Part shown: one piece after another, positions 4,202 to 18,635 of the stretch
Position numbering within the stretch: the stretch's first letter is position 1
Layout of the letters: each line of letters opens with the position of its first letter
Source: Candidatus Latescibacterota bacterium
Lineage (GTDB): Bacteria > Latescibacterota > UBA2968
Direction of reading: 5' to 3'
Assembly: GCA_965222605.1 (NCBI GenBank)
Contig: OZ244960.1
Span: 1,568,001 to 1,632,000 of the forward strand
Length of the DNA stretch: 64,000 nucleotides
Notes under the pieces: generated by a model
Told to the model about the DNA's origin: nothing
What the model saw: only the letters and a program-made list of their open reading frames with translations
The model's database searches: none
Program-made: the position numbers and the translations under genes

Positions 4202-4597
4202 ATGTTGATCTCGATTGACCATCATAATGGCATCCCCGTTTTCCGTCAGATTATCGACCAGGTGAAATTTCATGTGGTCAGCGGGCTGCTCGCGCCGGGT
4301 GACGAGTTGCTCTCAACCCGTGCATTATCGGGGCGACTGGGACTCAACCCAATGACAGTGAGCAAAGCGTACAGCCTGTTGGAAGCAGAGGGATTGGTCG
4401 AGCGGCGGCGCGGGCGACCTTTGACTGTAAAACCCTTACGAGATCAGACCGTACACGCTGAAAAACTGGCACAACTCAAACCACAACTCACGCAATTGGC
4501 AACAATGGTTCGACAGTTAGGGGTTGATCGGGCGGAAGTCGTGGATCTTTTCATCTCCATATTAAATGCCCTGGAGGAAGATAATCATGATACCTGA
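4202..4597 (+). CDS. GntR family, YtrA subfamily transcriptional regulator
   Basis: PVFRQIIDQV...LLSTRALS...NPMTVSKAYSLLE winged HTH with a short C-terminus, immediately upstream of an ABC ATPase. Confidence 0.92.
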   Translation: MLISIDHHNGIPVFRQIIDQVKFHVVSGLLAPGDELLSTRALSGRLGLNPMTVSKAYSLLEAEGLVERRRGRPLTVKPLRDQTVHAEKLAQLKPQLTQLATMVRQLGVDRAEVVDLFISILNALEEDNHDT

Positions 4598-5477
4598 CCA
4601 GACATCTGTATTTGAAGCCACATCTTTGACCAAAAAATTCGGTGACACCATAGCTCTCAATTCCGTAACGCTCTCTCTTGGGGCGCATCGAGTAATTGGA
4701 TTGATCGGACGAAATGGCGGAGGCAAAACCACCTTAATCCGGCACATGATTGGCCTGTATTTGCCCACAGAGGGAACGTGTAAAACACTGGGACGCGCGT
4801 GCGATCAATTGGGAGCAACCGAGCTTTCGCGCATGGGTGTGGTACACCAGGAAAATCAATTTTTCGAATGGATGACCGTCGAACAGCATCTGCACTATGT
4901 AGCCTCGTTTTACGAGGTCTGGGACCGCGATCTAGAAGCGCATCTGCTGCGCGAACTCGAACTGGAAACATCCGCGCGCGTGGGCAACCTGTCTTCGGGT
5001 AACATGCAAAAACTGGGCATTATTCTGGCAGTGTGTCATCATCCCGAGCTATTGATCTTAGATGAGCCAGCCAGTGGCCTGGATCCTATCGCGCGAGAGA
5101 CATTGTTGAAATTTTTGATGACACTTTTGGCTGAGGACGAAAACACAATTTTGATCTCCTCGCATATTCTGCGAGACATCGAAAAAATCGTGGATTGGGT
5201 CGTATGTCTCGACGAAGGTAAGGTCAAAGCCGACAAATCGCTGGACGATCTGCACCAGACCTATGCGAAGTGGACAGTAACGGGAAGCAATTTGCCCCAG
5301 CGATTTTCTGAACCTTATATCCTGTCGCAAACAGTGAACGGGGTACAAGCACATTTGATAGTCAATCAAGCACTGGGCAATGCAGATCAATTCAAGCAAA
5401 CTCATCGGGCTGATATCACCAGTCAGGCACTGAACCTCGACCAACTATTTCCCATCCTGATTCGAGAGGGTATGTAA
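4587..5477 (+). CDS. ABC transporter ATP-binding protein (YtrB-like)
   Basis: Walker A GRNGGGKTT, signature LSSGN, Walker B LILDEP, H-loop ISSHIL. Confidence 0.93.
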   Translation: MIPDQTSVFEATSLTKKFGDTIALNSVTLSLGAHRVIGLIGRNGGGKTTLIRHMIGLYLPTEGTCKTLGRACDQLGATELSRMGVVHQENQFFEWMTVEQHLHYVASFYEVWDRDLEAHLLRELELETSARVGNLSSGNMQKLGIILAVCHHPELLILDEPASGLDPIARETLLKFLMTLLAEDENTILISSHILRDIEKIVDWVVCLDEGKVKADKSLDDLHQTYAKWTVTGSNLPQRFSEPYILSQTVNGVQAHLIVNQALGNADQFKQTHRADITSQALNLDQLFPILIREGM

Positions 5478-6943
5478 TGGGCATTCTTCCATTTTTCACA
5501 TTTTTGCGAAGCCCTGTTTACATTCTCATCGCACTTTTTGCATATCTGTTGCTCGCCTATGTCTTGTCGTCTTCCCAAGCAGATCGGATCTCTGTATTCG
5601 TTTTGTTTTTCTTTATTGAATTTTGGGGCGGGACTATCGGCAGTATGGTAGGAGAGAACCAGTATCGGATGCTCACATGGACCCTGCCGCATTTTCGCAA
5701 GCGTCTGCTAATCTGGTCGGCAATAGTCGGACTATTTTCCATTATAGCGTGGACGGCTGCGCTGACGTTTGCACCCCTCAATGCGTCCTGGTCAACGATT
5801 TTGCTATTGAATCTGAGCCTCTTTTGTATCGGATTTGCCTTTTCAGGAGGTTGGAGCTTTGGTATCCAGCACCTCAGATTGGTTTCCATGTGCCGGACCT
5901 TCATCGTGTTCCTGGGGCTGGCATTAGCCTATTGGTGGCAAGAGGTACTCGCTTTTGGAGAGCAACAAAAGTTGGGGTTGGCTCTCATCGCATCCGCTAT
6001 CGCAATTGGAGCTTATTATTTCGCCTTTAACCAGACAACTTTTCGGAGGAAGCCATTTTTTTTCGTTCTTCCACTGCGCTTAACCCTTTTTCCTCAAACC
6101 CGAGAGATTTGGGAAAAAAATAGATTGAACAGGCGAAAGGTGAGTACCAGGGTATGGCATCTCGATCACATCGGTACAGGCATCTTCAATTGGCTGCGTG
6201 CTGGGCGGTATGAAAGTTCTGGTCTGGGTGGGTGGAGATGGCCTCTTTCCGCGTTTACTGCAGTATTGGCAATGGTGTTTTTCTTCATTGGCATGATAAC
6301 GTCTATGTTCGGGTTGTCGGATCGGTCTCCGTACGATTTTGAGACGCTATTAAAAACGATTTATCACATGATTTTTTATTTTGAACAGTTGGACTCCAAG
6401 GTCACAGGGGATATATTCGGCGCAGTGTTTGTCGGCATTTGTATGTATCTCTTTATTCCTCCTATTTCATTAAACAAAGGGTACGTCTATCCGCTTTCTC
6501 GCACCCAGCGGATGTGGATTCGGTATAGCAGTTTGCTGCTGCAAAATATTTCTTTTTTTGCAGCATCTATTCTGGTATTGGGTGTTCTGGGCATCCTGGC
6601 GGGAGCAAAGATCGGGTTTGTGTCTGAAGGAGATATTTCCCTGAGAATACTTTGTGTCCTTGGGTGGTGGGTCGTTCTGTTACCGATGTTGCAGTGGTTA
6701 CAAGTCAAATATGACCTGTATGAATTTCAAAGAACTCGGCGACAGATATGTGGGATGGCTTTTCTGCTCCTGGTCATGATTTTGTCTTTTGGAATCGCTG
6801 GTTTTACCAGTCTGATGCGTACCCGATATCCCGATTTGATGTTGACCTATGAAGCGCCGATCCTTTTTGTCTGTTTTATTTTTCTGCAATGGTTCCTATT
6901 GAGTCGGCTCAAACGGTATTATGCGACACAGGATCTGGTTTAG
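5477..6943 (+). CDS. Multi-TM ABC exporter permease, copy 1
   Basis: Many hydrophobic segments; translationally coupled (TAATG) to the ATPase; close paralog at 8013-9497. Confidence 0.75.
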   Translation: MGILPFFTFLRSPVYILIALFAYLLLAYVLSSSQADRISVFVLFFFIEFWGGTIGSMVGENQYRMLTWTLPHFRKRLLIWSAIVGLFSIIAWTAALTFAPLNASWSTILLLNLSLFCIGFAFSGGWSFGIQHLRLVSMCRTFIVFLGLALAYWWQEVLAFGEQQKLGLALIASAIAIGAYYFAFNQTTFRRKPFFFVLPLRLTLFPQTREIWEKNRLNRRKVSTRVWHLDHIGTGIFNWLRAGRYESSGLGGWRWPLSAFTAVLAMVFFFIGMITSMFGLSDRSPYDFETLLKTIYHMIFYFEQLDSKVTGDIFGAVFVGICMYLFIPPISLNKGYVYPLSRTQRMWIRYSSLLLQNISFFAASILVLGVLGILAGAKIGFVSEGDISLRILCVLGWWVVLLPMLQWLQVKYDLYEFQRTRRQICGMAFLLLVMILSFGIAGFTSLMRTRYPDLMLTYEAPILFVCFIFLQWFLLSRLKRYYATQDLV

Positions 6944-6981
6944 TAACCAGGTGGTTTAACTTTATCAGGAGGGAATGTGAA

Positions 6982-7845
6982 ATGAAACGTATAATTCTTT
7001 TTTTGGGGGCATACCTGTTGAGCATTCATGTGGCAGTAGCCCAGGATACAACACAGGAAACACAAAATATATGCCAGCTTAATTTTCACAATTTCGAAAT
7101 TGAAGATAGCAAAAAAGAAGAGATAGAACGCGGCGTACGAATGATGATCAAGATTTACAAAAATGTCTTTGATTTCAACGTATCTAAAAATTTTCAGATT
7201 GCGTTTCAGATATTTGGTGACCGTAACGATTATATCAAATATCGAGATGAAAATAGTGGTTCGAGTTCTGGGGTAGGATATTATGCTGTTGGAGAGAAAA
7301 AGGCAGTGATCGGACAATATTGTGATCGTTGTAATTGTTACATCAAGACCATATATCACGAAGCAAGTCACGCGATCTTGCATGAGCATTTATGGCATCC
7401 CAAATGGCTGCAAGAAGGCATAGCAGAGTATTTTGAGATGATAGAGGTATATGACGATAAAGTGGTTATTGGTTTTTCACCCGATCGTGACAAGGCGTGT
7501 CAAGAGTGGCTGGAAGAAGATCAATTGATGCCATTAAATGATCTCTTAACCCTGTCTAAATCTCAGTTCAACAAACAAAATTCCAAAATGCGGTCCCAGG
7601 CATGGTCATTTATTTATTTTCTAATGTCATCAAAAGAGGGGCAAAGCATTCTCAAGAATCTAATCTGGGAGATGAATCAGGCAGCGGGGGCGAAACCGAG
7701 TATATGGAATAGGCTCAGATTTAATTTCCTTTACGATAATCGGGAAATCGTGGAACGCGCAATACCACAGGGGATTGAGGCTTTGGATCAAAAATGGCGG
7801 GCATGGATACCACAGCAACGAGAGAAACAGGAGTTTCTTTTTTAG
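6982..7845 (+). CDS. Secreted HEXXH zinc metallopeptidase (DUF1570/peptidase MA-like)
   Basis: Signal peptide MKRIILFLGAYLLSIHVAVA; HEASH followed by WLQEGIAEYF (gluzincin third ligand); RBS GGAGG. Confidence 0.75.
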   Translation: MKRIILFLGAYLLSIHVAVAQDTTQETQNICQLNFHNFEIEDSKKEEIERGVRMMIKIYKNVFDFNVSKNFQIAFQIFGDRNDYIKYRDENSGSSSGVGYYAVGEKKAVIGQYCDRCNCYIKTIYHEASHAILHEHLWHPKWLQEGIAEYFEMIEVYDDKVVIGFSPDRDKACQEWLEEDQLMPLNDLLTLSKSQFNKQNSKMRSQAWSFIYFLMSSKEGQSILKNLIWEMNQAAGAKPSIWNRLRFNFLYDNREIVERAIPQGIEALDQKWRAWIPQQREKQEFLF

Positions 7846-7918
7846 CGTTCAGTAAACTCACATTGGGAGATTGAGATGGCGTATCCAAATCTAAAGCAGT
7901 CTATTTGGCTGCTGGTAT

Positions 7919-8012
7919 TGAGGACGAAAACACAATTTTGATCTCCTCGCATATCTTGCGAGATACTAAATCTCGACCAGCTATTTCCCATCCTGATTCA
8001 GGAGGGTATGTA
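7919..8012 (+). pseudogene. Internally deleted duplicate of the 3' part of the ABC ATPase gene
   Basis: 7919-7965 nearly repeats 5132-5177 (EDENTILISSHILRD) and is joined directly to a near-copy of 5430-5476. Confidence 0.85.
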
Positions 8013-9497
8013 ATGGGCATTTTTCCATTTTTCACATTTTTCCGAAGCCCTGTTTACATTCTCATCGCACTTTTTGCATATCTGTTGCTCGCCTATGTCT
8101 CGTGGACTGCCGACAGAGATCAGTTCTTTGTGTTTCTCGTATTTCTGTTGTTTTTCTTCAGTGGATTTTGGGGCTATACTATCGGCGGTATTATAGCGGA
8201 GAACCAGCATCGCATGCTCACCTGGACCCTGCCACATTTTCGCAAGCGTCTGATGGTGTGGTCAATAATTGTCGGACTATTTTCCGTTGTAGCGTGGACG
8301 GCTGCGCTGACGTTTGCTCCCCTCAATGTGTCCTGGTCAACAATCTTGCTAATAAATTTGAGTTTTTATTATTTCGGATTTGTCTGTACAGCGGGTTGGG
8401 ATTTTGGTGTTTATCATTCTATGTTGATCCAGGCAGGTCAGACCATGCTATTTTTTTTATTTCTCGTATTGGCTTTTTTTTGGCAAGAGGTGCTCGCCTT
8501 TGGAGAGCAACAAAACTTGGGGTTGGTTTTCATCGCATTTGCCATCACAATTGCGGCTTATTATTTTTCGTTTAAGCAGACAACTTTTCGGAGAAAGCCT
8601 CTTTCCTTGTTATGGTCACCGAGATCGGTTTTTTATCCTCATATCTGGGAGATGTGGAAAAGGGATGCGATGAAGAGGCGAAAGGCGAGTACCAGGGTAT
8701 GGCATCTCGATCACATCGGTACAGGCATCTTCAATTGGCTGCGTGCGGGCCGGTATGAAAATAGTGGTGGCAAGCTATGGCTATGGCTGCTTCCCGGGTT
8801 TAGTGCAGTATTGGCAATGGTGTTCTATTTCATTGGCATAATGACGCATGGATTCGGGATATTGGATCGGTCTCCTTACGATTTTGAGACGGTATTGAAA
8901 ACGGTTTATCACATGACCTTTTATTTTGACCAGTTGGACTCTAAAATCGCCATCAATATATCTCTTTCAGCGTTTGTCGGCATTTGGGCGTATATGACGT
9001 ATATTTGGAGTCATCCTTTTTTTCTAAAAAAAGGGTATATTTATCCGCTTTCTCGCACCCAGCGGATGTGGATTTGGTATTGTGGTTTTCTGGTGCAAAA
9101 TATTTCTTTTTTTATAGTATCTATACTGGTGTTGGGCGTTCTGGGCATCCTGGCGGGGGCAAAGATCGGATTTGTATCTGAAGGGGATATTTCCTTGAGA
9201 ATACTTTGTGTTTTTGGGTGGGCAGTGGTTCTTTGGCCGATGTTTCAGTGGTTACAAGTCAAATATCACCTGTATGAATTTCCAAGAACGCGGCGACAAA
9301 TATGGGGAGTGGCTTTTCTGCTCCTAATCATGATTTTGGCTTGTGGAATCGCTGGTTTTGCCGCTCTGATGCGTGTCCGATATCCCGATTTGATGCTGAT
9401 CTATGAAGTGCCGATTCTTTTTGTCTGTTTTATTCTTTTGCAATGGTTCCTATTGAGTCGGCTCAAACGGTATTACGCGACACAGGACCTGATTTAG
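8013..9497 (+). CDS. Multi-TM ABC exporter permease, copy 2
   Basis: Shares long identical blocks with 5477-6943 (STRVWHLDHIGTGIFNWLRAGRYE; QWFLLSRLKRYYATQDL). Confidence 0.78.
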   Translation: MGIFPFFTFFRSPVYILIALFAYLLLAYVSWTADRDQFFVFLVFLLFFFSGFWGYTIGGIIAENQHRMLTWTLPHFRKRLMVWSIIVGLFSVVAWTAALTFAPLNVSWSTILLINLSFYYFGFVCTAGWDFGVYHSMLIQAGQTMLFFLFLVLAFFWQEVLAFGEQQNLGLVFIAFAITIAAYYFSFKQTTFRRKPLSLLWSPRSVFYPHIWEMWKRDAMKRRKASTRVWHLDHIGTGIFNWLRAGRYENSGGKLWLWLLPGFSAVLAMVFYFIGIMTHGFGILDRSPYDFETVLKTVYHMTFYFDQLDSKIAINISLSAFVGIWAYMTYIWSHPFFLKKGYIYPLSRTQRMWIWYCGFLVQNISFFIVSILVLGVLGILAGAKIGFVSEGDISLRILCVFGWAVVLWPMFQWLQVKYHLYEFPRTRRQIWGVAFLLLIMILACGIAGFAALMRVRYPDLMLIYEVPILFVCFILLQWFLLSRLKRYYATQDLI

Positions 9498-9734
9498 TAA
9501 CCGCGAGTTTTTAAGTAGATTGATAAATCAATCGGATGGTATAGTGATTGCGATGCGTTCAACTCGAATCTCGTAGGACTAAAGGCATAATTTTGGTATA
9601 ATTATGCATATAAGCATTTGTTTTCTCATAGATTTTTTAATTTTTTATACACGTTAATAGCGTTTAAGATTTTGGAGAGGGTTATCCATTCTTTTACAAA
9701 CGTATGTATCCCCATACCTGAAAAAATAACGTGT

Positions 9735-11048
9735 ATGTTTAAAAACGGCACCATTCTCGACAAAAGATATCAAATCCAGGCGCACCTGGGAACCGGGGGC
9801 ATGGGCGAAGTTTATCGGGTTTTAGACCTGGATCAAGGCCAGGCGTGCGCGCTCAAAATTTTGAATACAATGGTGGATCAGAAGGCTGTGCATCGCCGTT
9901 TTCACAGAGAGTTTCAAGTGTTGAACCGATTCCAGCACCCGCGCCTGGTCCGCACATACACCTGGGGCTTTGCCGAAGATCGTCCCTATTTTACAATGGA
10001 ATATTTGCCCGGAAAGACATTGGAAAAAATAATTGCCGATCAAGCACGGTTAGGGCAATTCCGAGCGTCTCACTTTTTTGCTCTGGTACAACAACTTGCC
10101 GAGGGATTGGCTTATATCCACACGCAGGGGGCGGTGCATCGCGATCTCAAACCATCCAATATTATGGTTTTGGAAACAGAAGAGGGGATTGAGACCACGA
10201 TCCTGGATATGGGACTGGCGAAACTCAGGCATCTACATAGCGTTTCCATTACGCAAACGGGCGCGGCGATTGGTACCGCCGAGTATATGTCGCCAGAGCA
10301 AGGTAAGGGTCTCTGGGTGGATCATCGGTCAGATTTGTACTCATTGGGCATAATTTTATATGAGATGCTCACGGGCGCGCCGCCATTTTCTGGACAAAAC
10401 CCAATATCTGTTATTATGAAGCATATTCGAGAGTCACCCCCACCAATGGGTCAAGTCAATATCGCTGTTCCCGAACAGACGCAACAAATTGTGCTGAAGT
10501 TGCTGGCAAAAGAGCCTGTTGATCGTTATCAGTCGGCAGAGGAGGTGTTACATGCCTTACCATCGGAGGTTGTGTTGCCGGGTGATGAGCTGCGCGATGT
10601 GCGCAGGAAAGTTATGCGGCCACAATTTATCGGGCGCGAATCCGAAATGAAGACGTTGCGCGCAATGTTGCAGGATGTACAGGCTGGCAAACAGCGCGTA
10701 GTGCTGATCTCTGGTGAGGCAGGGGTGGGCAAATCGAGATTGGTCGAAGAACTATTGGGCGACGCTCTGATCCATGACTTTCTGTGTTTGAAAAGCGCAG
10801 CTCAGGAAGAGGGCAGACAAATATACGGTGCGTTGATTGATGCTTTTCAGCGAGTAAAAACGACGGATTTGGTGGGAAGGGAAACAGACAAGTTTTCTGT
10901 TATGGAGCGTTGGTTGCAGTTATTAAAAAGTCTGCGACAGAAACAGCCCATTGTGTTGTGTTTGGAAGATATTCAATGGCTTGATGAATTGACCCTGGAA
11001 TTTTTACAGTACGCGATCCAGAACCGTGCCCGTTTTTGTTATGCCTGA
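9735..11048 (+). CDS. Ser/Thr protein kinase + AAA ATPase N-terminal part (5' part of a frameshifted kinase-AAA-TPR-GAF-sigma54 activator)
   Basis: Kinase motifs LGTGGMGEVY, HRDLKPSN, DMGLA, GTAEYMSPEQ and SDLYSLG; then FIGRESE, Walker A GEAGVGKS and Walker B LEDIQWLD. Confidence 0.88.
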   Translation: MFKNGTILDKRYQIQAHLGTGGMGEVYRVLDLDQGQACALKILNTMVDQKAVHRRFHREFQVLNRFQHPRLVRTYTWGFAEDRPYFTMEYLPGKTLEKIIADQARLGQFRASHFFALVQQLAEGLAYIHTQGAVHRDLKPSNIMVLETEEGIETTILDMGLAKLRHLHSVSITQTGAAIGTAEYMSPEQGKGLWVDHRSDLYSLGIILYEMLTGAPPFSGQNPISVIMKHIRESPPPMGQVNIAVPEQTQQIVLKLLAKEPVDRYQSAEEVLHALPSEVVLPGDELRDVRRKVMRPQFIGRESEMKTLRAMLQDVQAGKQRVVLISGEAGVGKSRLVEELLGDALIHDFLCLKSAAQEEGRQIYGALIDAFQRVKTTDLVGRETDKFSVMERWLQLLKSLRQKQPIVLCLEDIQWLDELTLEFLQYAIQNRARFCYA

Positions 11049-14000
11049 CTTGCCGATGGTCTAACCTGGAACCCCTTTCAGAGGAAATTGAAAAATTTAT
11101 ATACAGTAATGAATTTGCCGAGACGACCCAGATGCAGTTGGGAAATCTGTCACAAGAAGCGTCGGGATATTTAGCGGCGTCGATGTTTGGGGAGCGAGCC
11201 ATACCGTTAGATGCATTGCAAACCCTGTTCAGAGAAACAGGTGGGCTACCCCTGTTTGTCGTGGAGGCTGTGAGGACACTGGTAAATGCCGATGTGGTTC
11301 GGCAGAATGCGTTCGGCGATTGGCAGTGGGGAGAATTTCCCGAAACTTTGTTGTCCGATGATTTTGCAGAGGTTTTGTACAGGCGCATAGTTGCCCTGCC
11401 TGCTGTGCAACAGCGGGTGCTGGAATACGCCTGTGTTTTTCTGAGTGATTTTCCTTTTGAATTATTGGCTGCTATCTGGCGCGGCGATGAGTTGGAACTG
11501 TTGGATGTACTGGATGAATTGATTGCAGAAGGGCTTTTGACAGCTTGTGGAGAGGATGAAGATCGATATCGATTTTCACAGGCGTTGTGTCGGCGTGCAA
11601 TTTACGATCACATGCAAAATGTGCGGCGACGTCTGCTGCATCGAGAAATTGGCAGTGCTTTGGAAAAGATGGAGGATGCAGAAGAACTGACGGAAGAATT
11701 GGCGGATCATTTTGCGGCGGCAAAAGAACAAGATAAAGCTGTGAAATATACACGCCTATCAGGCAAAAAAGCATTGGAGGTACAAGCCTATCGCCAGGCA
11801 TTGAGACGGTTTGAGGCTGTGCGAGACTGGGCAGCGGATGACGCTTTTGAATCACCTGCAGATGTAATTGACTTTTTGTGCGATTATGCAGATGCGTTGC
11901 GCAATTGCGGTCAGCACAATAGCGCACTGGAACTTTTAGATGAGGCACAGGCGTTATTGCCCGATGATCGGAACGATTTGAAGGCACGTATTTTGAGGAA
12001 TATAGGTGGTATTCATACCGTACTTCAACAGGGAAAAATTACAAAAAAATATATGTTGGAGGCATTGCGACTTTATCGAGAACTGGGTGATTTTGAGGGT
12101 GAAATTCAAACGTTGGGGAGTTTGGCTTATTTGTACGACATGTCTGGACGACACGAAGAAGCTATTGCATATATGCGTCGGGAAATAGAGAAACGTCGTG
12201 CGCTACGAGAACCACAAAACAGAGCTTTTATACAGGGGCGAGAAGGTCAAGCAGCATTGGTCGGATTTCGATTTGAGACAGCTAAGGGGTATTTGGAAAC
12301 TGCTGTAAAGGCCTTTAAGCAACCTGGTCTGGAGCACCATCGCATTTGGGCACTTAATTTTCTTCCAAGAGTTTATTTCTATCTAAATAATTTTAATCGT
12401 GCAGAAGCCATTTGCCACGAAGTCATTGGTGAGTGGCAGAAGCGAGGGGTTGTGTACTGGGAAGCAGTGAATCTTCTCTGGCTTGGGGAATTGGCTCTGG
12501 AACGCGGTGATTTTGCCGAGGCATTGGAATATGCCGAGACCTCAGCAGAGCGTTTTTTGGAAACACCGAGAAGAGATTATGTCTATCGCGCTTATGCAAT
12601 AGCGGCAACAGTTGCTGCGAGAATGGGAGATGCAGAAGTAGCACTTGAATGGGCAGAAAAAGCCAGTGAAGGTACGCAACAAACATCGGGTATGTACACG
12701 GGTATATTGCCCCTGGTGTATTGTGGTATTGGTGTTGCTTTTGCTCAAGCAGAGCGGATTTCTGAGGCTGAAGAGGCTTTTGAGCAGGCTATTGAATGCC
12801 GAAGAGAATCCAAAGGCGATCACTGGGCACGTGCGTTGCTGATGGCAGGGGAGTTTTATCTCGAGCGCGATGATATGACAAAAGCTCAAGAGTATCTCGA
12901 AGCGGCACAACAGGCTTTTGGAGAAATGGAAATGTCCTATTTTTTGGAGAAAACAGAGGTGCTATTAAATCAATTATCTCGCGACAAAGATGGTCACGGC
13001 AAGGATGCCGCTCCAACCCCCAGTTCTGAGATTTCAGTCGATACGTTGTCTGTTGATCGCTTGCGCTTGCTTTACGATGTGAGCAGGGAATTAACCACAG
13101 AGCGCGATGTCAAAGTGTTATTGGATCGAACTTTGGGTAATTTACTGGCTGTTTATCCCGCAGAGCGAGTACTTATTGCGGTGAAAAATGAGGCTCCAAA
13201 AGGCTTTGTGGTTGATGCGGTACGTTACCACAATGTAGAAGCTGATGATGCAGAAGCACTGAGTCGGAGTATTATTCGCCGCGTTATTGAAACAAATGAA
13301 CCGGTTTTGAGCGTTGATGCCCAGGCAGATGGAAGACTCAATCGGTATCAAAGCGTGATGGACTACAACATTCGGTCTGTATTGTGCGTACCCCTATTTC
13401 ATGTTAAGGAAGGTGTGATGGGTGCCCTATATGTGGATCATCGCGGTATCGGCAACGCATTTTCTGAAGCAGATCAGACGTTTTTACAAGCATTTGCGAA
13501 TCTGGTGGGGGTAGCACTGGTCAATGCGAGGATGTACGAACAATTAGAAGATAAAACGCGATATTTGCAGCAACAGATCGAAAGGCGGTACCAGCTTGAC
13601 GATCTGGTTGGGCAAAGTGATGCGATGCAGGCCATCTACTATCTTATCGAACGCGCTTCACAAAGTGATATACCCGTACTTGTGCAGGGCGAAACAGGTA
13701 CAGGCAAAGAATTGGCTGCGCGTGCCATACACTACAATAGCAGACGCAAAGACCAGCCATTTTTGTCGCAAAATTGCGCTGCACTTTCACCAGAGTTGTT
13801 GCAGAGTGAGTTGTTTGGGCACAAAAAAGGGGCGTTTACTGGCGCGACAGCAAATCACACTGGGATTTTTGAAGCGGCCAATGGCGGTACGGTTTTTTTA
13901 GATGAAATCGCTGATGCTTCACCACAGTTGCAAAGGAGTTTGTTGCGGGTGTTGCAAGAGGGTGAGGTGCGGCGCGTGGGAGAAACAGTGGATCGCGCAG

Positions 14001-14533
14001 TGGATGTGCGCATTATTGCAGCGACCAATCGAGACTTAAAAAAAGAAGTAGAAAACAGCTCCTTCCGCGAAGATCTGTATTACCGGTTGCATGTGATTCA
14101 GATCAATATGCCGCCTTTGCGAAAACGCATTGAAGATGTGCCATTATTGGCTGAACATTTGCTCATTCGGGCAAAAGAAGATGCAAACAAGTCGGTTGGG
14201 GGGCTGACAGTAGGTGCGATAAAGACCCTTGCAAGTTACAACTGGCCTGGTAATGTACGCGAGTTAGAAAATGAGATTCGGCGTGCGGTTGCATTGGTAG
14301 AAGAAGAGGGTGAAATTACGCCCGATTTGTTTTCAGAAACTGTCGGGTACACAGTGTCAGATGTCCCTGTCGAATCCCAGGAACGTTTACAAGACCGTGT
14401 CCAGGAGTATGAAAAACGAGTGATTCGAGACGCACTCGAGAAATGCGAGGGCAATATTACCCATACGGCTAAAGAACTGGGGATAACGCGTGCTGGTTTA
14501 CAGAAAAAGATCAATCGTTTGGGATTGAGATAG
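11036..14533 (+). CDS. AAA C-terminal part/wHTH-TPR-GAF-sigma54 enhancer-binding protein with Fis HTH (3' part of the frameshifted gene)
   Basis: TGGLPLFV; TPR-like helices; GAF RSVLCVPL...GALYVD; GETGTGKE, ELFGHKKGAFTGA, FLDEI, RIIAATN, FREDLYYRL and WPGNVRELEN; HTH NITHTAKELGITR. Confidence 0.9.
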   Translation: MLCLTCRWSNLEPLSEEIEKFIYSNEFAETTQMQLGNLSQEASGYLAASMFGERAIPLDALQTLFRETGGLPLFVVEAVRTLVNADVVRQNAFGDWQWGEFPETLLSDDFAEVLYRRIVALPAVQQRVLEYACVFLSDFPFELLAAIWRGDELELLDVLDELIAEGLLTACGEDEDRYRFSQALCRRAIYDHMQNVRRRLLHREIGSALEKMEDAEELTEELADHFAAAKEQDKAVKYTRLSGKKALEVQAYRQALRRFEAVRDWAADDAFESPADVIDFLCDYADALRNCGQHNSALELLDEAQALLPDDRNDLKARILRNIGGIHTVLQQGKITKKYMLEALRLYRELGDFEGEIQTLGSLAYLYDMSGRHEEAIAYMRREIEKRRALREPQNRAFIQGREGQAALVGFRFETAKGYLETAVKAFKQPGLEHHRIWALNFLPRVYFYLNNFNRAEAICHEVIGEWQKRGVVYWEAVNLLWLGELALERGDFAEALEYAETSAERFLETPRRDYVYRAYAIAATVAARMGDAEVALEWAEKASEGTQQTSGMYTGILPLVYCGIGVAFAQAERISEAEEAFEQAIECRRESKGDHWARALLMAGEFYLERDDMTKAQEYLEAAQQAFGEMEMSYFLEKTEVLLNQLSRDKDGHGKDAAPTPSSEISVDTLSVDRLRLLYDVSRELTTERDVKVLLDRTLGNLLAVYPAERVLIAVKNEAPKGFVVDAVRYHNVEADDAEALSRSIIRRVIETNEPVLSVDAQADGRLNRYQSVMDYNIRSVLCVPLFHVKEGVMGALYVDHRGIGNAFSEADQTFLQAFANLVGVALVNARMYEQLEDKTRYLQQQIERRYQLDDLVGQSDAMQAIYYLIERASQSDIPVLVQGETGTGKELAARAIHYNSRRKDQPFLSQNCAALSPELLQSELFGHKKGAFTGATANHTGIFEAANGGTVFLDEIADASPQLQRSLLRVLQEGEVRRVGETVDRAVDVRIIAATNRDLKKEVENSSFREDLYYRLHVIQINMPPLRKRIEDVPLLAEHLLIRAKEDANKSVGGLTVGAIKTLASYNWPGNVRELENEIRRAVALVEEEGEITPDLFSETVGYTVSDVPVESQERLQDRVQEYEKRVIRDALEKCEGNITHTAKELGITRAGLQKKINRLGLR

Positions 14534-14544
14534 TCGGTGAACAG

Positions 14545-14664
14545 GTGCATCCAACTGTATGCAGTGCATCCTGTCGGATGCACTTTACCTATTCTTATAT
14601 AATTCAAATATTTATGTTGGTTTTCTTTAAATAAGCACTTATAGGTGCATCCTGTCGGATGCAC
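14545..14664. promoter_or_regulatory. Three palindromic upstream activator (enhancer) sites
   Basis: GTGCATCC-TGTC-GGATGCAC is identical at 14564-14583 and 14645-14664; a degenerate copy GTGCATCC-AACT-GTATGCAG lies at 14545-14564. All are 110-230 bp upstream of a sigma54 promoter. Confidence 0.8.
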
Positions 14665-14721
14665 TTGCGCCAGAATCTCGCAGGTGTAGCACAAATAATC
14701 CTTAAATTTTATCTCTTTTAT

Positions 14722-14734
14722 TTTCAATCACTTG
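14722..14734. promoter_or_regulatory. Putative IHF site between enhancer and sigma54 promoter
   Basis: TTTCAATCACTTG has one mismatch to WATCAANNNNTTR and lies in an AT-rich context. Confidence 0.5.
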
Positions 14735-14773
14735 AGAATCTTCAAGTGCTTTTTTTGTTCTGAGGACGGTTTC

Positions 14774-14788
14774 AGGCACGCCTTTTGC
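14774..14788 (+). promoter_or_regulatory. Sigma54 (-24/-12) promoter of the RiPP operon
   Basis: AGGCACG-CCTT-TTGC gives exact GG-N10-GC spacing. Confidence 0.82.
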
Positions 14789-14846
14789 GGTATGAAAAGG
14801 GCGAGACAGTGACAATATGGGATTTTCGCATCGTAAGGAGAGTAAT

Positions 14847-15026
14847 ATGGCAACGCGACGCAAGTTGGATCTGATCAATGGAACGATAGATACAGAAGGT
14901 GGTATTCTTATGTATCGGGCTACGAACAGTTTTGAGGTTGGCTGTATGCCTGGTGATATAGCCGTTCCCCCCCTGCCCTTTCCCAATGACGATGACGATT
15001 GGGACAATTTTGAGCAAGCTAAGTGA
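14847..15026 (+). CDS. Putative RiPP (ranthipeptide-like) precursor peptide, 59 aa
   Basis: RBS AAGGAG; sequence MATRRKLDLINGTIDTEGGILMYRATNSFEVGCMPGDIAVPPLPFPNDDDDWDNFEQAK; single CX3D motif (CMPGD); directly upstream of a radical SAM/SPASM gene. Confidence 0.75.
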   Translation: MATRRKLDLINGTIDTEGGILMYRATNSFEVGCMPGDIAVPPLPFPNDDDDWDNFEQAK

Positions 15027-15050
15027 TTTCGATTCTCAGGAGTGCTTGAC

Positions 15051-16487
15051 ATGCTATGCATTCAGAAATGTGACATGCATCTTTTTCAAACAGAAGAGCA
15101 AAAACAGCCTGTTGTCTATCAGGTTGAGACGGGTCTGTTTTTTACACTGGATCCCCTTTTGCAGGCAATTTTAGCGTGTTGTGAGGGGATATCTGCTTCA
15201 CAGGTTGTTCAGATGTTGGCTGATCAATACGAGGCAGAAGAAATCGTGGAGGCTATCCAAGAATTGGCTCAGGTGGGTTTGATTTCGGATGGTGCTCTAC
15301 CTGTGGTATCCGATGTACCGACGACAGAAGGGGTGGCAGCCTGTGGGGTATCGCAGACAGATCGTTTGCAGGTGTCGTTGCACGTTTCGCATACGTGCAA
15401 TATCCAATGCGCTTATTGCTTTGCCCACGGCGGGGATTATGGCGGTAAGGCCATGCTGATGCAATCAGACGTTGCCGAGCAAGCCATACGATGGATTGTC
15501 ACCGAGGCTCAGACATTGGGGCGGTGCCAGATTGATTTTTTTGGCGGGGAGCCGCTTTTGAATTTTCCACTGATGCGCAAGCTTGTCCCATTTGCCAAAT
15601 CCCAGGCAGCGCGATTGGGTGTGCAGGTTGGTTTTGGCATTGTGACCAATGGCACGTTGTTGACTGACGAGATGAAGCAGTTTTTAGTTGATGAAAAGTT
15701 TCAGATTAAGGTCAGCCTGGATGGTGGGCGTGCAACACAGAACCGCATTCGCAAGTTTCACAATGATTCAGGTACTTATGATGTTGTGGCAACGAATGTA
15801 AAAAAGCTGACTGCTGAGGTACCTGAGCGCGTGTATTTGCAGGCTGTTATGACAGCGTATGATATGGATGAGGATCAGATTGCCGATGCGTTGCGTTCTC
15901 TGGGTACTGAAAACGCGCTGGTTGGCCCGGCGGTTGTCTCCCCCGATAAACCTTATGCTATTCGAGAAGAACACATACCCGCATTGAAGCAACAAATTCA
16001 CAAGCGGAGCCGGCGTGCGCTCAAAGCCATTTTAAGTGGTGAAAAGGGTGAAGATGAAGAGTTTGATCCGAGGATTCAAAAACTTTTGACACGCAAAAAA
16101 TCTTGTCACGGGTGTCTCGGTGGCAAGCAGTATTTGGCTGTTGCAGCAGATGGGTCAATTTATTTTTGCTCGAGTTTGGCCGATGCGCCCGAGTTTAAGA
16201 TGGGTGATGTGTTTGCGGGTATTGACCGCGAAAAACAGCATTATTTTGACGCGCAGTTCAATGTGAATAATCGTCCTGAGTGCAAAACGTGCTGGGCGCG
16301 CAACTTATGTGGTGGCGGATGTCTTTGGGAGGCGCGGACGACGACGGATGATCCGATGTCTCCCAACCCGGTTTATTGTGAGCAGACGCGCTATCGTTAT
16401 GAACTGGCAATGGAAATGTGTATGGAAATTGCAGAAGCAGATGCGTCTTTGTTGCAGCGACGTTATGATCTGGAAGTGGTATCATAA
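15051..16487 (+). CDS. Radical SAM/SPASM peptide maturase with N-terminal RRE (PapB/CteB/QhpD-like)
   Basis: CNIQCAYC, DFFGGEPLLN, VTNGTLL and SLDG; SPASM C...DGSIYFC...CKTCWARNLCGGGC...C; N-terminal ~90-aa PqqD-like segment ending EAIQELAQVGLI; RBS AGGAG. Confidence 0.9.
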   Translation: MLCIQKCDMHLFQTEEQKQPVVYQVETGLFFTLDPLLQAILACCEGISASQVVQMLADQYEAEEIVEAIQELAQVGLISDGALPVVSDVPTTEGVAACGVSQTDRLQVSLHVSHTCNIQCAYCFAHGGDYGGKAMLMQSDVAEQAIRWIVTEAQTLGRCQIDFFGGEPLLNFPLMRKLVPFAKSQAARLGVQVGFGIVTNGTLLTDEMKQFLVDEKFQIKVSLDGGRATQNRIRKFHNDSGTYDVVATNVKKLTAEVPERVYLQAVMTAYDMDEDQIADALRSLGTENALVGPAVVSPDKPYAIREEHIPALKQQIHKRSRRALKAILSGEKGEDEEFDPRIQKLLTRKKSCHGCLGGKQYLAVAADGSIYFCSSLADAPEFKMGDVFAGIDREKQHYFDAQFNVNNRPECKTCWARNLCGGGCLWEARTTTDDPMSPNPVYCEQTRYRYELAMEMCMEIAEADASLLQRRYDLEVVS

Positions 16488-16548
16488 GCAGAGAAGTGAG
16501 GAATGCATAAAATTTTAGACTTCAATTGCATGGAAAGGAGCAATTGCA

Positions 16549-17466
16549 ATGAAAGCGATCTTGTATGTGGCTATGGTGCTGTTTCTTACAGCCAGTTCTG
16601 GCATGGCAGAGCGAAAGACGCTCGACAAAATACATCGTCAAATACCCGTTGGCGCGTCAGAAGTGCTTGTGCCGAACCCAAAACGACAAGATGGTTACGA
16701 TCAGATTATAAAAAATCATGAGTTAAAATACGATAAGAAGACAGGGCTTTATACCTATCGATATTGGCAGACAGATAGCACGTATGTCGATTTGCTTTAT
16801 GAACCCTCCAACCGGCTTGATGTGACGGTTGCATGCTCTGTGGTCTATGATGGAGAAACGGACGAATACACCTATACTTATCACATCCTAAATAGCAAGG
16901 AGAGCTTACAACCTTTGTGGATATTTGCTTTAGATATAGACCGCAGCCTGGTACTTCGTACTGAAACACCTGAACCATGGTATTATTCTTCTACTCATGA
17001 GCCTCCGCCCGGCTCACCTCGATGGGCATTTTGGGGATCGTTAGGCAGGTATGTGCCCCCAGGCGAATCTATTTCCTTGAAGCTTGTGAGCAAACACGGT
17101 CCGATCATCGCTACCTGTTACTCCAAAGGTCGTGCTCGAACTTTTGATCATCCTGTTGTTGTCGATGCTTTGACTTCTCATCCACCAAATAAAGAGGGTG
17201 TTACAGGTCAGACGCTCGCGCCTGGTATTCTGAATGCTGAAAATGCACAAGCACAGATTGAGGCATTTCTCCAGACTGCTCAGACCTGGGGGTGGGTCAG
17301 CACAGAGAAGAAAGGTGCGGCACTTGTTCACCTTTCCAAGGGATTGGATAGAAATACCTTCAACGCCTTAAAAAACGAACTGAATCCCAATCCTGGTGAG
17401 GTTGAAAGTGAGATGGCTGCGTTCTTAGAGCACTTTGCCAATAAGCAGGGATTTGTGGATGATTAG
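16549..17466 (+). CDS. Secreted hypothetical protein in the RiPP operon
   Basis: RBS AAGGAG; signal peptide MKAILYVAMVLFLTASSGMA; beta-rich core; no catalytic motif recognised. Confidence 0.7.
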   Translation: MKAILYVAMVLFLTASSGMAERKTLDKIHRQIPVGASEVLVPNPKRQDGYDQIIKNHELKYDKKTGLYTYRYWQTDSTYVDLLYEPSNRLDVTVACSVVYDGETDEYTYTYHILNSKESLQPLWIFALDIDRSLVLRTETPEPWYYSSTHEPPPGSPRWAFWGSLGRYVPPGESISLKLVSKHGPIIATCYSKGRARTFDHPVVVDALTSHPPNKEGVTGQTLAPGILNAENAQAQIEAFLQTAQTWGWVSTEKKGAALVHLSKGLDRNTFNALKNELNPNPGEVESEMAAFLEHFANKQGFVDD

Positions 17467-17559
17467 CATCTTCTGCATTGGGGCAGCATGCCCCCTCTCG
17501 CAGCAAAATCAAGCCAGCACAGAAAGGCACTGAAGAACGCTATTATCGAATATTTGCTT

Positions 17560-17608
17560 AAAAACGGCATCCAAATGGAGAGCACCCCGTTAGATGCCGT
17601 TTATTTTA
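17560..17608 (+). terminator. Putative intrinsic terminator of the RiPP operon
   Basis: AAACGGCATC...GATGCCGTTT stem followed by a T-rich tract. Confidence 0.55.
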
Positions 17609-17645: not shown

Positions 17646-18635
17646 TGGGAGGAATATATCACTCAAAAATCCGGCCTCGATAAATGGCCGCTCATTGGAC
17701 AGCACCCCTCACTCTTAGACGTACAAAAGCGCGCGTACCGCGTGGCGAATAGCGAATTGCCCGTCAACATCAGTGGAGAGACTGGCACAGGCAAGGAATT
17801 GCTCGCCCGTTATATTCACGGAATTAGCCACCGCAACAAGGGACCTTTTGTAACCGTTGACTGCGGCCTACTCTCTTCTGAAATGGCGCGCAGCGAGTTA
17901 TTTGGACATGTTCGAGGTGCTTTTACCGGCGCCAGTCAAACGCGCACCGGACTGGTTGAATCTGCCCAAGGCGGTACGCTATTCCTCGATGAAGTGGGCG
18001 AATTGCCTGCCAACCTCCAGTTGCAATTGCTTCGCCTGGCACAGGAACAGGAATTTCGCCGCGTAGGCGACGCACCCATGCGCCGATCCAACGTGCGCCT
18101 GATCACTGCGACACACTGCAATTTGAAAAAAATGATGCGAACAGGAACTTTCCGAGAAGATCTCTATTACCGCTTAAATGTCGTACCCCTGCATTTGCCA
18201 CCCCTGCGGAAGCGACTGAGCGATTTGCCACTTTTGGTCACGCATTTTTGCAAAAGTATGAAAGGATACACGCGCGCGTTTTCCCCCGAAGTAATTCAAA
18301 GGATGTCGCATTATGCCTGGCCTGGCAATGTTCGAGAATTACAACACGAAGTCGCCCGATTGATGGTCATGAGCGAAGGTAAAATTATCCGTGTATCCGA
18401 TCTGAGCCCTCGCATTCGAGGGTCCAAAGCAGAGGTTGATGTATTTGACCTCCCGTTTAAGGAAGCCAGACAACTGGCGAATAGCCGGTTTATGCGGGAG
18501 TATCTCCACAGAGCTTTACAGCGAACACAGGGCAATGTATCACAAGCAGCGCGAGAATGCGGGATTGGCCGACAATATTTCCAGTTGCGTATGTCCGAAC
18601 ACGGTCTAAGGTCGGCATTTTACAAGGAAAAATAA
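17646..18635 (+). CDS. Sigma54 enhancer-binding protein without an N-terminal sensor (AAA + HTH); start uncertain
   Basis: Motifs GETGTGKE, SELFGHVRGAFTGA, LFLDEV, FREDLYYRL and WPGNVRELQ; HTH GNVSQAARECGI. The frame is open upstream of GTG 17742 through LIGQHPSL back to 17646. Confidence 0.85.
   Translation, partial: WEEYITQKSGLDKWPLIGQHPSLLDVQKRAYRVANSELPVNISGETGTGKELLARYIHGISHRNKGPFVTVDCGLLSSEMARSELFGHVRGAFTGASQTRTGLVESAQGGTLFLDEVGELPANLQLQLLRLAQEQEFRRVGDAPMRRSNVRLITATHCNLKKMMRTGTFREDLYYRLNVVPLHLPPLRKRLSDLPLLVTHFCKSMKGYTRAFSPEVIQRMSHYAWPGNVRELQHEVARLMVMSEGKIIRVSDLSPRIRGSKAEVDVFDLPFKEARQLANSRFMREYLHRALQRTQGNVSQAARECGIGRQYFQLRMSEHGLRSAFYKEK

Follow-up and report, generated by a model that had tools for sequence, protein, structure and literature searches.

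A sigma-54-controlled cassette in Latescibacterota with a single-cysteine peptide and a putative thioether maturase

The locus

We analysed a stretch of 64,000 nucleotides (nt) from a Candidatus Latescibacterota bacterium (contig OZ244960.1 of assembly GCA_965222605.1, positions 1,568,001 to 1,632,000 of the forward strand; "the window" below, in whose own numbering positions are given), concentrating on a cassette made up of a gene for a giant sigma-54 activator, an intergenic control region, a gene for a peptide of 59 amino acids (aa) and a gene for a radical S-adenosylmethionine (radical-SAM) maturase. We consider it probable, at roughly 0.6, that this locus belongs to an undescribed Latescibacterota cassette of the type that yields RiPPs (peptides made by the ribosome and modified post-translationally), in which a sigma-54-switched peptide is accompanied by a maturase that makes one Cys thioether. 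The features of the cassette, including the RiPP recognition element (RRE) of the maturase, are as follows.

9618..11048, + strand: N-terminal piece of the activator, with a Ser/Thr kinase and the start of a STAND NTPase (AAA_16), ended by a frameshift
11005..11016, + strand: point at which 7 nt are missing by comparison with orthologs, splitting the activator gene
11036..14533, + strand: C-terminal piece of the activator, with MalT-like TPR, GAF, sigma-54 AAA+ (GAFTGA) and Fis-type helix-turn-helix (HTH_8) domains
14545..14664, no strand: putative enhancer (upstream activating sequence, UAS), comprising three palindromes, of which those at 14564-14583 and 14645-14664 (20 bp) are perfect and that at 14545-14564 is imperfect
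14729..14756, + strand: terminator-like hairpin with a run of seven T, an 8-bp stem-loop between enhancer and promoter
14775..14788, + strand: sigma-54 promoter with -24 GG and -12 GC, GGCACGCCTTTTGC (GG-N10-GC)
14847..15026, + strand: precursor peptide, 59 aa, with leader Asn11, Cys33, the hexapeptide MPGDIA, a VPPLPFP block and an acidic tail
15042..16487, + strand: RRE-radical SAM/SPASM maturase, 481 aa, CteB-like

A precursor family with one cysteine

The open reading frame (ORF) of the precursor reads MATRRKLDLINGTIDTEGGILMYRATNSFEVGCMPGDIAVPPLPFPNDDDDWDNFEQAK and starts with the ATG at 14847, behind the ribosome-binding site AAGGAGAG at 14835-14842. An earlier note on this DNA had described a 59-aa ORF with a strong ribosome-binding site, a single Cys in GCMPGD, RKLDLING in the leader, a proline-rich stretch and a DDDDWD tail, all of which we find, the stretch being VPPLPFP. 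It had also suggested checking whether such an ORF is kept beside homologous radical-SAM genes, and it is: a homologous small ORF lies 5' of the maturase in all 28 cassettes that could be assessed, 26 of them clear cases and two (L031, L048) divergent candidates, with L030 left out because it has no upstream DNA. The clear precursors are those of the window, of a second cassette in the same genome, of 19 loci in a near clade (about 90% maturase identity) and of five in a far clade (about 50%). Five residues, M1, N11, G18, C33 and P46, are invariant in the 28 precursors. The pooled ratio of nonsynonymous to synonymous substitution rates (dN/dS) over 21 near-clade genes is 0.35; by region it is lowest in VPPLPFP (0.11), stands at 0.33 in the leader and 0.35 in the tail, and reaches 0.55 over the Cys and the six residues after it.

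A profile search of a protein collection extended the family to 150 precursor clusters (90% identity), every one of them unnamed or annotated as hypothetical. Among the best 120 clusters, 112 fit the pattern C-x(5,6)-[VIFLA]P..P.P; these 112 contain the window peptide and the relatives already counted, and are not independent of the cassette loci. The spacer from Cys to block is exactly six residues long in 110 of the 112 and is filled by 75 different hexapeptides. Exactly one Cys is present in 100 clusters and two in the other 12, a Glu stands three or four residues before the Cys in 96 (only K, Q or D in 11), and a DDD run follows the proline block in 107. The CX3D motif on which the earlier note had built is not conserved: Asp occupies Cys+4 in three of 28 cassettes (window, L007, L029) and in 16 of 112 clusters, where Trp is commonest (W 35, D 16, S 12, P 11, T 10, V 9, G 7, R 5), and the second cassette of the same genome reads GCEPGW, with Trp at that position. 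As judged from these peptides, the signature of the family is a leader Asn, one Cys, a variable loop of fixed length and a strongly constrained VPPLPFP block, not CX3D.

The maturase and its nearest relatives

The maturase carries CX3CX2C at residues 119-126 and CX2CX5CX3C at 414-427, and in 19 sequences all of its radical-SAM cysteines and all seven SPASM cysteines are invariant. Pfam recognises Radical_SAM and Fer4_12, together with sub-threshold SPASM and PqqD matches (the latter over residues 24-81, scoring 22.3 bits where the cut-off is 23.4). In an AlphaFold model with a predicted local distance difference test score (pLDDT) of 68, whose cluster loops are weak, residues 12-77 form an N-terminal domain of three strands and three helices. 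The best NCBIfam scores are 264.9 bits for QhpD (residues 17-473; TIGR03906, cut-off 453), 264.5 for SCIFF (TIGR03974, 425), 261.9 for nif11 (518.7), 234.9 for the ScfB-related orphan family (855) and 225.2 for PapB (NF047865, 340), so that the enzyme falls under the cut-off of every named family; the model for the anaerobic sulfatase-maturating enzyme (anSME) gives 114.4. When a 19-member family profile was compared with solved structures, CteB (5WGG) matched with 299 bits over residues 9-456 and anSME came next with 90.6; CteB is likewise the top Foldseek match of the maturase model (E 8e-28, 28% identity), with anSME at rank 4. The RRE-radical SAM/SPASM gene of the earlier note is thus present, and its nearest named relatives, QhpD, SCIFF/CteB and PapB, are Cys-thioether maturases, whereas assignment as a PapB-type enzyme does not hold at 225.2 bits against 340.

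Metatranscriptome contigs from four runs, at 90% likeness, span parts of the maturase gene of relatives (15032-16525), and those in X18, X19 and X22 run into unlike sequence at 16475-16525. No contig from the four runs fell on the control region, the precursor or a 305-aa gene that follows the maturase.

A sigma-54 control region

All control elements lie inside the intergenic stretch 14534-14846. Both perfect 20-bp palindromes read GTGCATCCTGTCGGATGCAC, and a third copy is imperfect. The motif occurs at two loci only in the 6.3-Mb genome (its reversed-pattern control gives 0), and the palindromes stand out as conserved columns in a nine-row alignment of eight orthologous control regions and an orphan copy described below. 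A match to GGCAY-N5-YTGC lies 57-79 nt 5' of the ATG in 21/21 near-clade cassettes. In the far clade, a TGG-N9-TGC expression matches at a plausible distance in four of seven (L025, L028, L029, L031) and GGGTAC-N5-TTGCA was recognised by eye in L026 and L027, giving six far-clade cassettes with a promoter of the form TGGTAC, GGGTAC or TGGAAC; the promoter of L048 is doubtful. The genome also has an rpoN gene.

The enhancer palindromes and the GG-N10-GC promoter of the earlier note are therefore borne out, as is its view of a sigma-54-driven unit, for which a -24/-12 promoter at conserved distance, a GAFTGA activator, upstream palindromes and rpoN all speak. Its site for integration host factor (IHF) did not survive: the IHF consensus, with one mismatch allowed, matches 66 times in the window against 69.7 expected, and the match between enhancer and promoter (14722-14734), which overlaps the hairpin, was rejected as chance. 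Apart from IHF, the elements by which a sigma-54-dependent operon with an enhancer-binding protein is recognised in sequence are all in place. The hairpin itself folds as RNA at -7.8 kcal/mol (z = -2.25), its stem and T-run are unchanged in all rows of the nine-row alignment, and 19 of 21 near-clade cassettes have a palindrome at its position; it resembles a terminator sited 5' of the promoter.

The giant activator and its frameshift

In orthologs the activator is a single ORF of about 1650 aa with Pkinase, AAA_16 (STAND), MalT-like TPR, GAF, Sigma54_activat and HTH_8 domains, and its gene precedes the precursor in both near and far clades. In the window it is divided by a 7-nt gap after CAGTA, seen by blastn in the assembled sequence against seven of seven syntenic orthologs. 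The N-terminal piece retains Pkinase (169.9 bits) and AAA_16 (77.3 bits), with the motifs HRDLKPSN and, as Walker A, GEAGVGKS; the C-terminal piece retains Sigma54_activat (234.1 bits, GAFTGA at residue 932) along with GAF, TPR_12, TPR_MalT and HTH_8. A TTG start of the C-terminal piece lies 13 nt before the stop of the N-terminal piece, which it hence overlaps. Going by ORF structure, the activator is split in five of 25 assessable cassettes (window, L006, L021, L022, L023) and unsplit, at about 1650 aa, in the other 20, among them the second cassette of the same genome (1669 aa).

Palindromes of the GTGCAT type accompany the activator in 9/9 cassettes whose recognition segment in the HTH helix is GLQKK and in 0/12 with GLHKK or SLYRK, a co-variation that speaks for the binding of each activator to its own enhancer. 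Conservation within the activator is lowest in the TPR segment at residues 301-500, at 71-73% against 89% for the AAA+ domain.

Distribution of the cassette

We found the cassette in 25 of 168 Latescibacterota genomes and in 15 of 20 other genomes of the genus, at one to three copies each; the genome of the window holds two, with maturases 90% identical. By genome search the family is limited to metagenome-assembled genomes labelled Latescibacterota and a few labelled Gemmatimonadota. The order activator, promoter, precursor, maturase is retained in both clades. Maturase scores in the protein collection stay at or above 294 bits through rank 61 and then drop to 253, and in a FastTree phylogeny of 111 sequences all 53 full-length family rows form one clade with Shimodaira-Hasegawa-like support of 100, apart from the SCIFF-named clade; this grouping is partly circular because the tree rows were chosen by score rank. 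The literature searched, which covered open-licence PMC papers and bioRxiv preprints, holds no description of the cassette.

More distant maturase relatives, 25-26% identical to the window enzyme, occur in Bdellovibrionales, where the genes after the maturase encode a CHASE2 histidine kinase and a sigma-54 response regulator of the NtrC type at all five loci checked (L060, L075, L079, L083, L085). In far-clade cassettes there is a further RRE-radical-SAM gene, whose product shares about 25% identity with the window maturase and which is followed by a GT4 glycosyltransferase; no second precursor was recognised for it. The second gene lies as follows.

L025, 7548-9029: second RRE-radical-SAM gene
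L029, 8310-9701: second RRE-radical-SAM gene
L031, 6141-7637: second RRE-radical-SAM gene
L048, 6670-8136: second RRE-radical-SAM gene

Comparison with known systems

The closest system, by sequence and by fold, is the SCIFF/thermocellin pair CteA-CteB (PDB 5WGG/5WHY), in which the maturase has the same architecture of RRE, radical-SAM core and seven-Cys SPASM domain and the short precursor is likewise encoded just 5' of it. The window maturase nevertheless scores well under the SCIFF cut-off and falls in a clade apart from SCIFF-named proteins; its precursor has one Cys rather than a Cys-rich core (a SCIFF precursor has six Cys in about 45 residues), and its cassette is controlled by sigma-54 and a giant activator and comes from Latescibacterota, not Firmicutes. 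QhpD, the maturase of quinohemoprotein amine dehydrogenase, gives the highest NCBIfam score, yet one below its cut-off, and no amine-dehydrogenase subunit family was found among the ORFs scanned (window 107-26681), a scan that did not include a search for Qhp families by name.

The streptococcal pair NxxcA-NxxcB, which we liken by description and not by sequence, is regulated by quorum sensing, and the window cassette is driven by sigma-54. In PMC9389541, its product is a beta-thioether radical-SAM RiPP with a single small ring and a variable acceptor shortly before the Cys, comparable to the E-X2-3-C found here. The freyrasin pair PapA-PapB shares a thioether-type radical SAM/SPASM enzyme and, according to PMC9413430, a conserved leader Asn, and the window peptide itself carries one CX3D; in the same paper, however, PapA has six CX3D/E motifs, in contrast to the one Cys of the window family and its minority of peptides with Asp at +4 (16/112).

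On the regulatory side, the activator shares with enhancer-binding proteins of the NifA/NorR type a core of GAF, AAA+ (GAFTGA) and HTH_8 domains as well as UAS palindromes and a -24/-12 promoter, and scores 389.5 bits with the NifA model and 355 with that of NorR, all below cut-offs. It differs in adding a Ser/Thr kinase, a STAND NTPase and TPR in front (about 1650 aa) and in having a peptide-maturase pair as its output.

Proposed mechanism

We propose that the giant activator, which would be cytoplasmic, binds the 20-bp palindromes of its own cassette, some 200 and 280 bp 5' of the start codon, and opens the sigma-54 promoter at 14775-14788. The resulting transcript would carry the precursor and the maturase and, here, also an inserted gene for a secreted Ig-like protein (see below). 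The N-terminal RRE of the maturase would dock the leader RKLxL[IV]NG with its invariant Asn; PMC9413430 implicates a conserved Asn of the leader in the binding of the RRE. The radical-SAM/SPASM core would then modify the sole invariant Cys33, most likely by one thioether cross-link, and the six hypervariable residues between the Cys and the proline block would be displayed as a loop. Candidate acceptors are Val40, the first residue of VPPLPFP at Cys+7, and Glu30, the Glu found at Cys-3/-4, not the Asp at Cys+4: the acceptor logic of NxxcB, PapB and CteB, together with the variability of the +4 residue, makes the conserved Val40 or Glu30 more likely. As described in PMC9389541, PapB and NxxcB make beta-thioethers and CteB a gamma-thioether from Cys, NxxC provides a precedent for an acceptor upstream of the Cys, the native acceptor of NxxcB is Asn although other residues are tolerated there, and the acceptor may be any residue with the right carbon.

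An RRE-radical SAM/SPASM enzyme akin to thioether synthases lies beside a Cys-containing precursor, and by this gene arrangement the cassette resembles a ranthipeptide/sactipeptide system; it belongs to none of the named families, because the maturase is below every cut-off and the precursor is without their signatures. Several points weigh against the proposed reading of this locus. With the enzyme below every named cut-off, the predicted chemistry is an extrapolation by kinship from relatives at about 28% identity. Prolines apart, the two clades have no single invariant acceptor residue in common, and 11 of the 112 clusters have K, Q or D in place of the Glu at Cys-3/-4. The earlier note had remarked that the operon has no protease or exporter, and none is conserved across the cassettes examined: no protease that might remove the leader recurs, and exporters through which the product might leave the cell are sporadic (an ABC exporter in L026 and L027, a MacB permease in L015). 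The window's activator is split by the 7-nt deletion, so that this copy of the cassette may be impaired and possibly unexpressed. Finally, the contigs from RNA libraries cover the maturase genes of relatives only, and may reflect DNA carry-over.

Genes flanking the cassette

The cassette is followed in the window by an inserted gene and a second sigma-54 activator, and a further unnamed protein recurs downstream of other maturases.

16498..17543, + strand: genome-specific insertion of about 1.05 kb, carrying the 305-aa gene at 16549-17466
17649..18635, + strand: short sensor-less sigma-54 activator with AAA+ (GAFTGA) and HTH_8 (Pfam)
L086, 9904-10797; also in L008, L012, L013, L019, L020, L022, L024 and L006: unnamed protein of about 300 aa

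The insertion has no blastn match in six of seven syntenic orthologs. The secreted protein noted earlier is present as a 305-aa ORF with a hydrophobic N-terminal helix, beginning 61 nt 3' of the maturase, and a terminator scan gave none between the two genes. Its proposed role as the partner of the modified peptide is not upheld, given that a homolog adjoins the maturase in 0/28 other cassettes and that the gene sits in an insertion missing from six of seven orthologs; in L011 a homolog lies 5.5 kb from the maturase, not adjoining it. The terminator listed by the earlier note was likewise not found after this gene in a scan of the + strand. The protein model (pLDDT 91.1) comprises a signal helix, two beta-sandwich domains and a four-helix bundle. 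Neither Pfam nor NCBIfam has a family for it, and Foldseek against the PDB gave generic Ig-like matches only, with template modelling (TM) scores of at most 0.28; a HMMER search of 1.84 billion representatives returned 71 unnamed relatives. At the same insertion point L014 carries a different gene, of 388 aa and without a Pfam family (7507-8673), and the 3' sides of the two inserts have about 100 nt in common.

In the six syntenic orthologs without the insertion, the short activator begins about 90 nt after the maturase, and it stands downstream, directly after the maturase, in seven other cassettes. Window sequence from 17649 on is 92% identical to the L018 homolog of this gene; the first in-frame ATG, GTG or TTG comes at 17742, 31 codons into the homology. 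The short activator could be co-transcribed with the maturase, making a cascade. In 9/21 near-clade cassettes the unnamed protein of some 300 aa is encoded after the maturase, as the first ORF in seven of them; it is Methyltransf_24-like by language-model features only (0.96), which we treat as a lead. AraC regulators (five loci) and GT4 glycosyltransferases (seven loci) also recur downstream. On the 5' side of the activator, window 4202-9497 encodes a GntR regulator, an ABC ATPase, paralogous proteins of 488 and 530 aa without a family, and a DUF1570 protein; homologs of the 488- and 530-aa proteins lie upstream of the activator in seven other cassettes as well.

Detached enhancer-promoter modules

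At the only other locus of the palindrome in the genome, the module recurs in full: its three sites are spaced as in the cassette, and it has the hairpin and, as promoter, GGCACGCATTTTGC.

L087, 7016-7260 (G000:C1:3455515 onward): orphan enhancer-hairpin-promoter module, homologous up to about the transcription start
L087, 7453-12999: gene for an FN3-repeat protein of at least 1849 aa, about 200 nt after the orphan module

The giant protein has FN3, He_PIG and SprB repeats as well as 7.9 tandem units of 315 nt, and no activator gene adjoins it. Of 21 genomes in the genus, 16 contain the palindrome (reversed control, 0). Three of the four extra non-cassette sites examined adjoin a sigma-54 promoter match (L088, L090 and L091, in G072, G081 and G087), and the fourth, L089, has the palindrome without such a match. 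The modules of L088 and L090 precede operons of signal-peptide and lipoprotein genes, that of L091 other genes. In G088 palindromes are present and a maturase match is absent. We rejected the giant FN3 protein as a shared second target: its N-terminus was not found near the extra palindromes of G072, G081, G087, G088 or G076, so that second targets differ between genomes. From the position of detached modules before genes for secreted or surface proteins, the activator seems to govern these proteins too, and the 305-aa gene fits this pattern as a recruit to the operon.

Alternative explanations

The earlier note had seen in the product a minimal ranthipeptide of the PapA type, with Cys33 joined by the maturase to the beta-carbon of Asp37. 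C-M-P-G-D is indeed present in the window peptide, PapB is among the five best NCBIfam matches of the maturase, and PapB is described in PMC9413430 as cross-linking Cys to Asp or Glu in CX3D/E while tolerating CXnD with n = 0-6. Asp at Cys+4 is nonetheless confined to three of the 28 cassettes and to 16 of the 112 clusters, a Trp takes its place in the other cassette of this genome, whose maturase is 90% identical, and the PapB score is far short of its cut-off, so that we find this ring very unlikely. Only a little better placed, and still quite unlikely, is a different radical reaction on Cys-X-Pro, for example an anSME-like oxidation to formylglycine or a sulfur-free cross-link. The standing of anSME as second-best solved relative would suit it, as would the C-x-P of many precursors (hexapeptides xPGxxx and xPYxxx), the sulfatase motif being C-x-P-x-R; yet the QhpD, SCIFF and PapB models reach 225-265 bits where anSME reaches 114, about one third of loops begin with Pro itself (PSG, PAG and similar) and not x-Pro, and an RRE together with a leader is typical of RiPP cross-linkers. 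That the small ORF is not the substrate at all, and that the maturase acts on a protein such as the neighbouring secreted one, strikes us as extremely improbable. Some maturase relatives do modify proteins, one paper reportedly describes protein thioether cross-links made by a SPASM enzyme, and the 305-aa gene starts 61 nt after the maturase with no terminator found between, but the small ORF precedes the maturase in every assessable cassette, the 305-aa gene adjoins it in none of the 28 others, and the genes downstream of the maturase vary among cassettes.

The remaining alternative concerns what the peptide does, and we regard it as unlikely: the modified peptide would be a ligand of its own or a paralog's activator, with the specificity of the loop read by the TPR/STAND sensor in an autoinducing or kin-discriminating circuit of a diderm phylum. 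Genomes hold one to three diverged cassettes, each with its own HTH and palindrome type, 75 loop variants sit on a constant frame, the TPR segment is the least conserved part of the activator, and a CHASE2 kinase and a sigma-54 response regulator lie beside distant maturases at 5/5 Bdellovibrionales loci, all of which would suit such a circuit. Against it, Pfam shows no membrane or periplasmic part in the activator, no exporter is conserved, linked genes co-diverge anyway, and the loop, with a dN/dS of 0.55, does not exceed 1. A complex prediction for the precursor with the TPR-GAF part of the activator (residues 1-835 of the C-terminal piece) scored 0.00 and 0.01 against a mark of 0.32, from alignments of 28 rows for the precursor and 21 for the activator, and is neutral on binding. 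In a fuller version, which we hold to be just as unlikely, the locus would be a peptide-coded signalling or kin-recognition circuit: the cross-link would fix the Cys...VPPLPFP frame, the displayed six-residue loop would be read by the cognate TPR/STAND sensor, and the activator would also switch on surface or secreted proteins through portable modules. If that were true, the portable modules would serve the inserted Ig-like protein and the giant FN3-repeat protein here and, in relatives, lipoprotein operons.

Significance

Radical-SAM thioether peptides are known mainly from Firmicutes, with Cys-rich cores and with antibiotic or quorum-sensing roles. Read as a sigma-54-switched RiPP-type cassette with a maturase that would make one Cys thioether, the family described here differs in its single Cys, its variable loop of fixed length, its strongly constrained proline block and its diversity of 150 clusters. 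Its control is also unusual, resting on a sigma-54 activator of about 1650 aa with kinase, STAND, TPR and GAF parts and on an enhancer-promoter module that occurs detached before surface-protein genes as well. The prediction of a Cys-to-Asp ring would be a poor guide for experiments, whereas the pair of maturase and precursor offers a small, easily expressed enzyme and substrate with which a possibly new cross-link could be found. More broadly, the cassette is a further case of radical-SAM peptides linked to sigma-54 sensors in bacteria of the Gram-negative type, a pattern also seen at the Bdellovibrionales loci.

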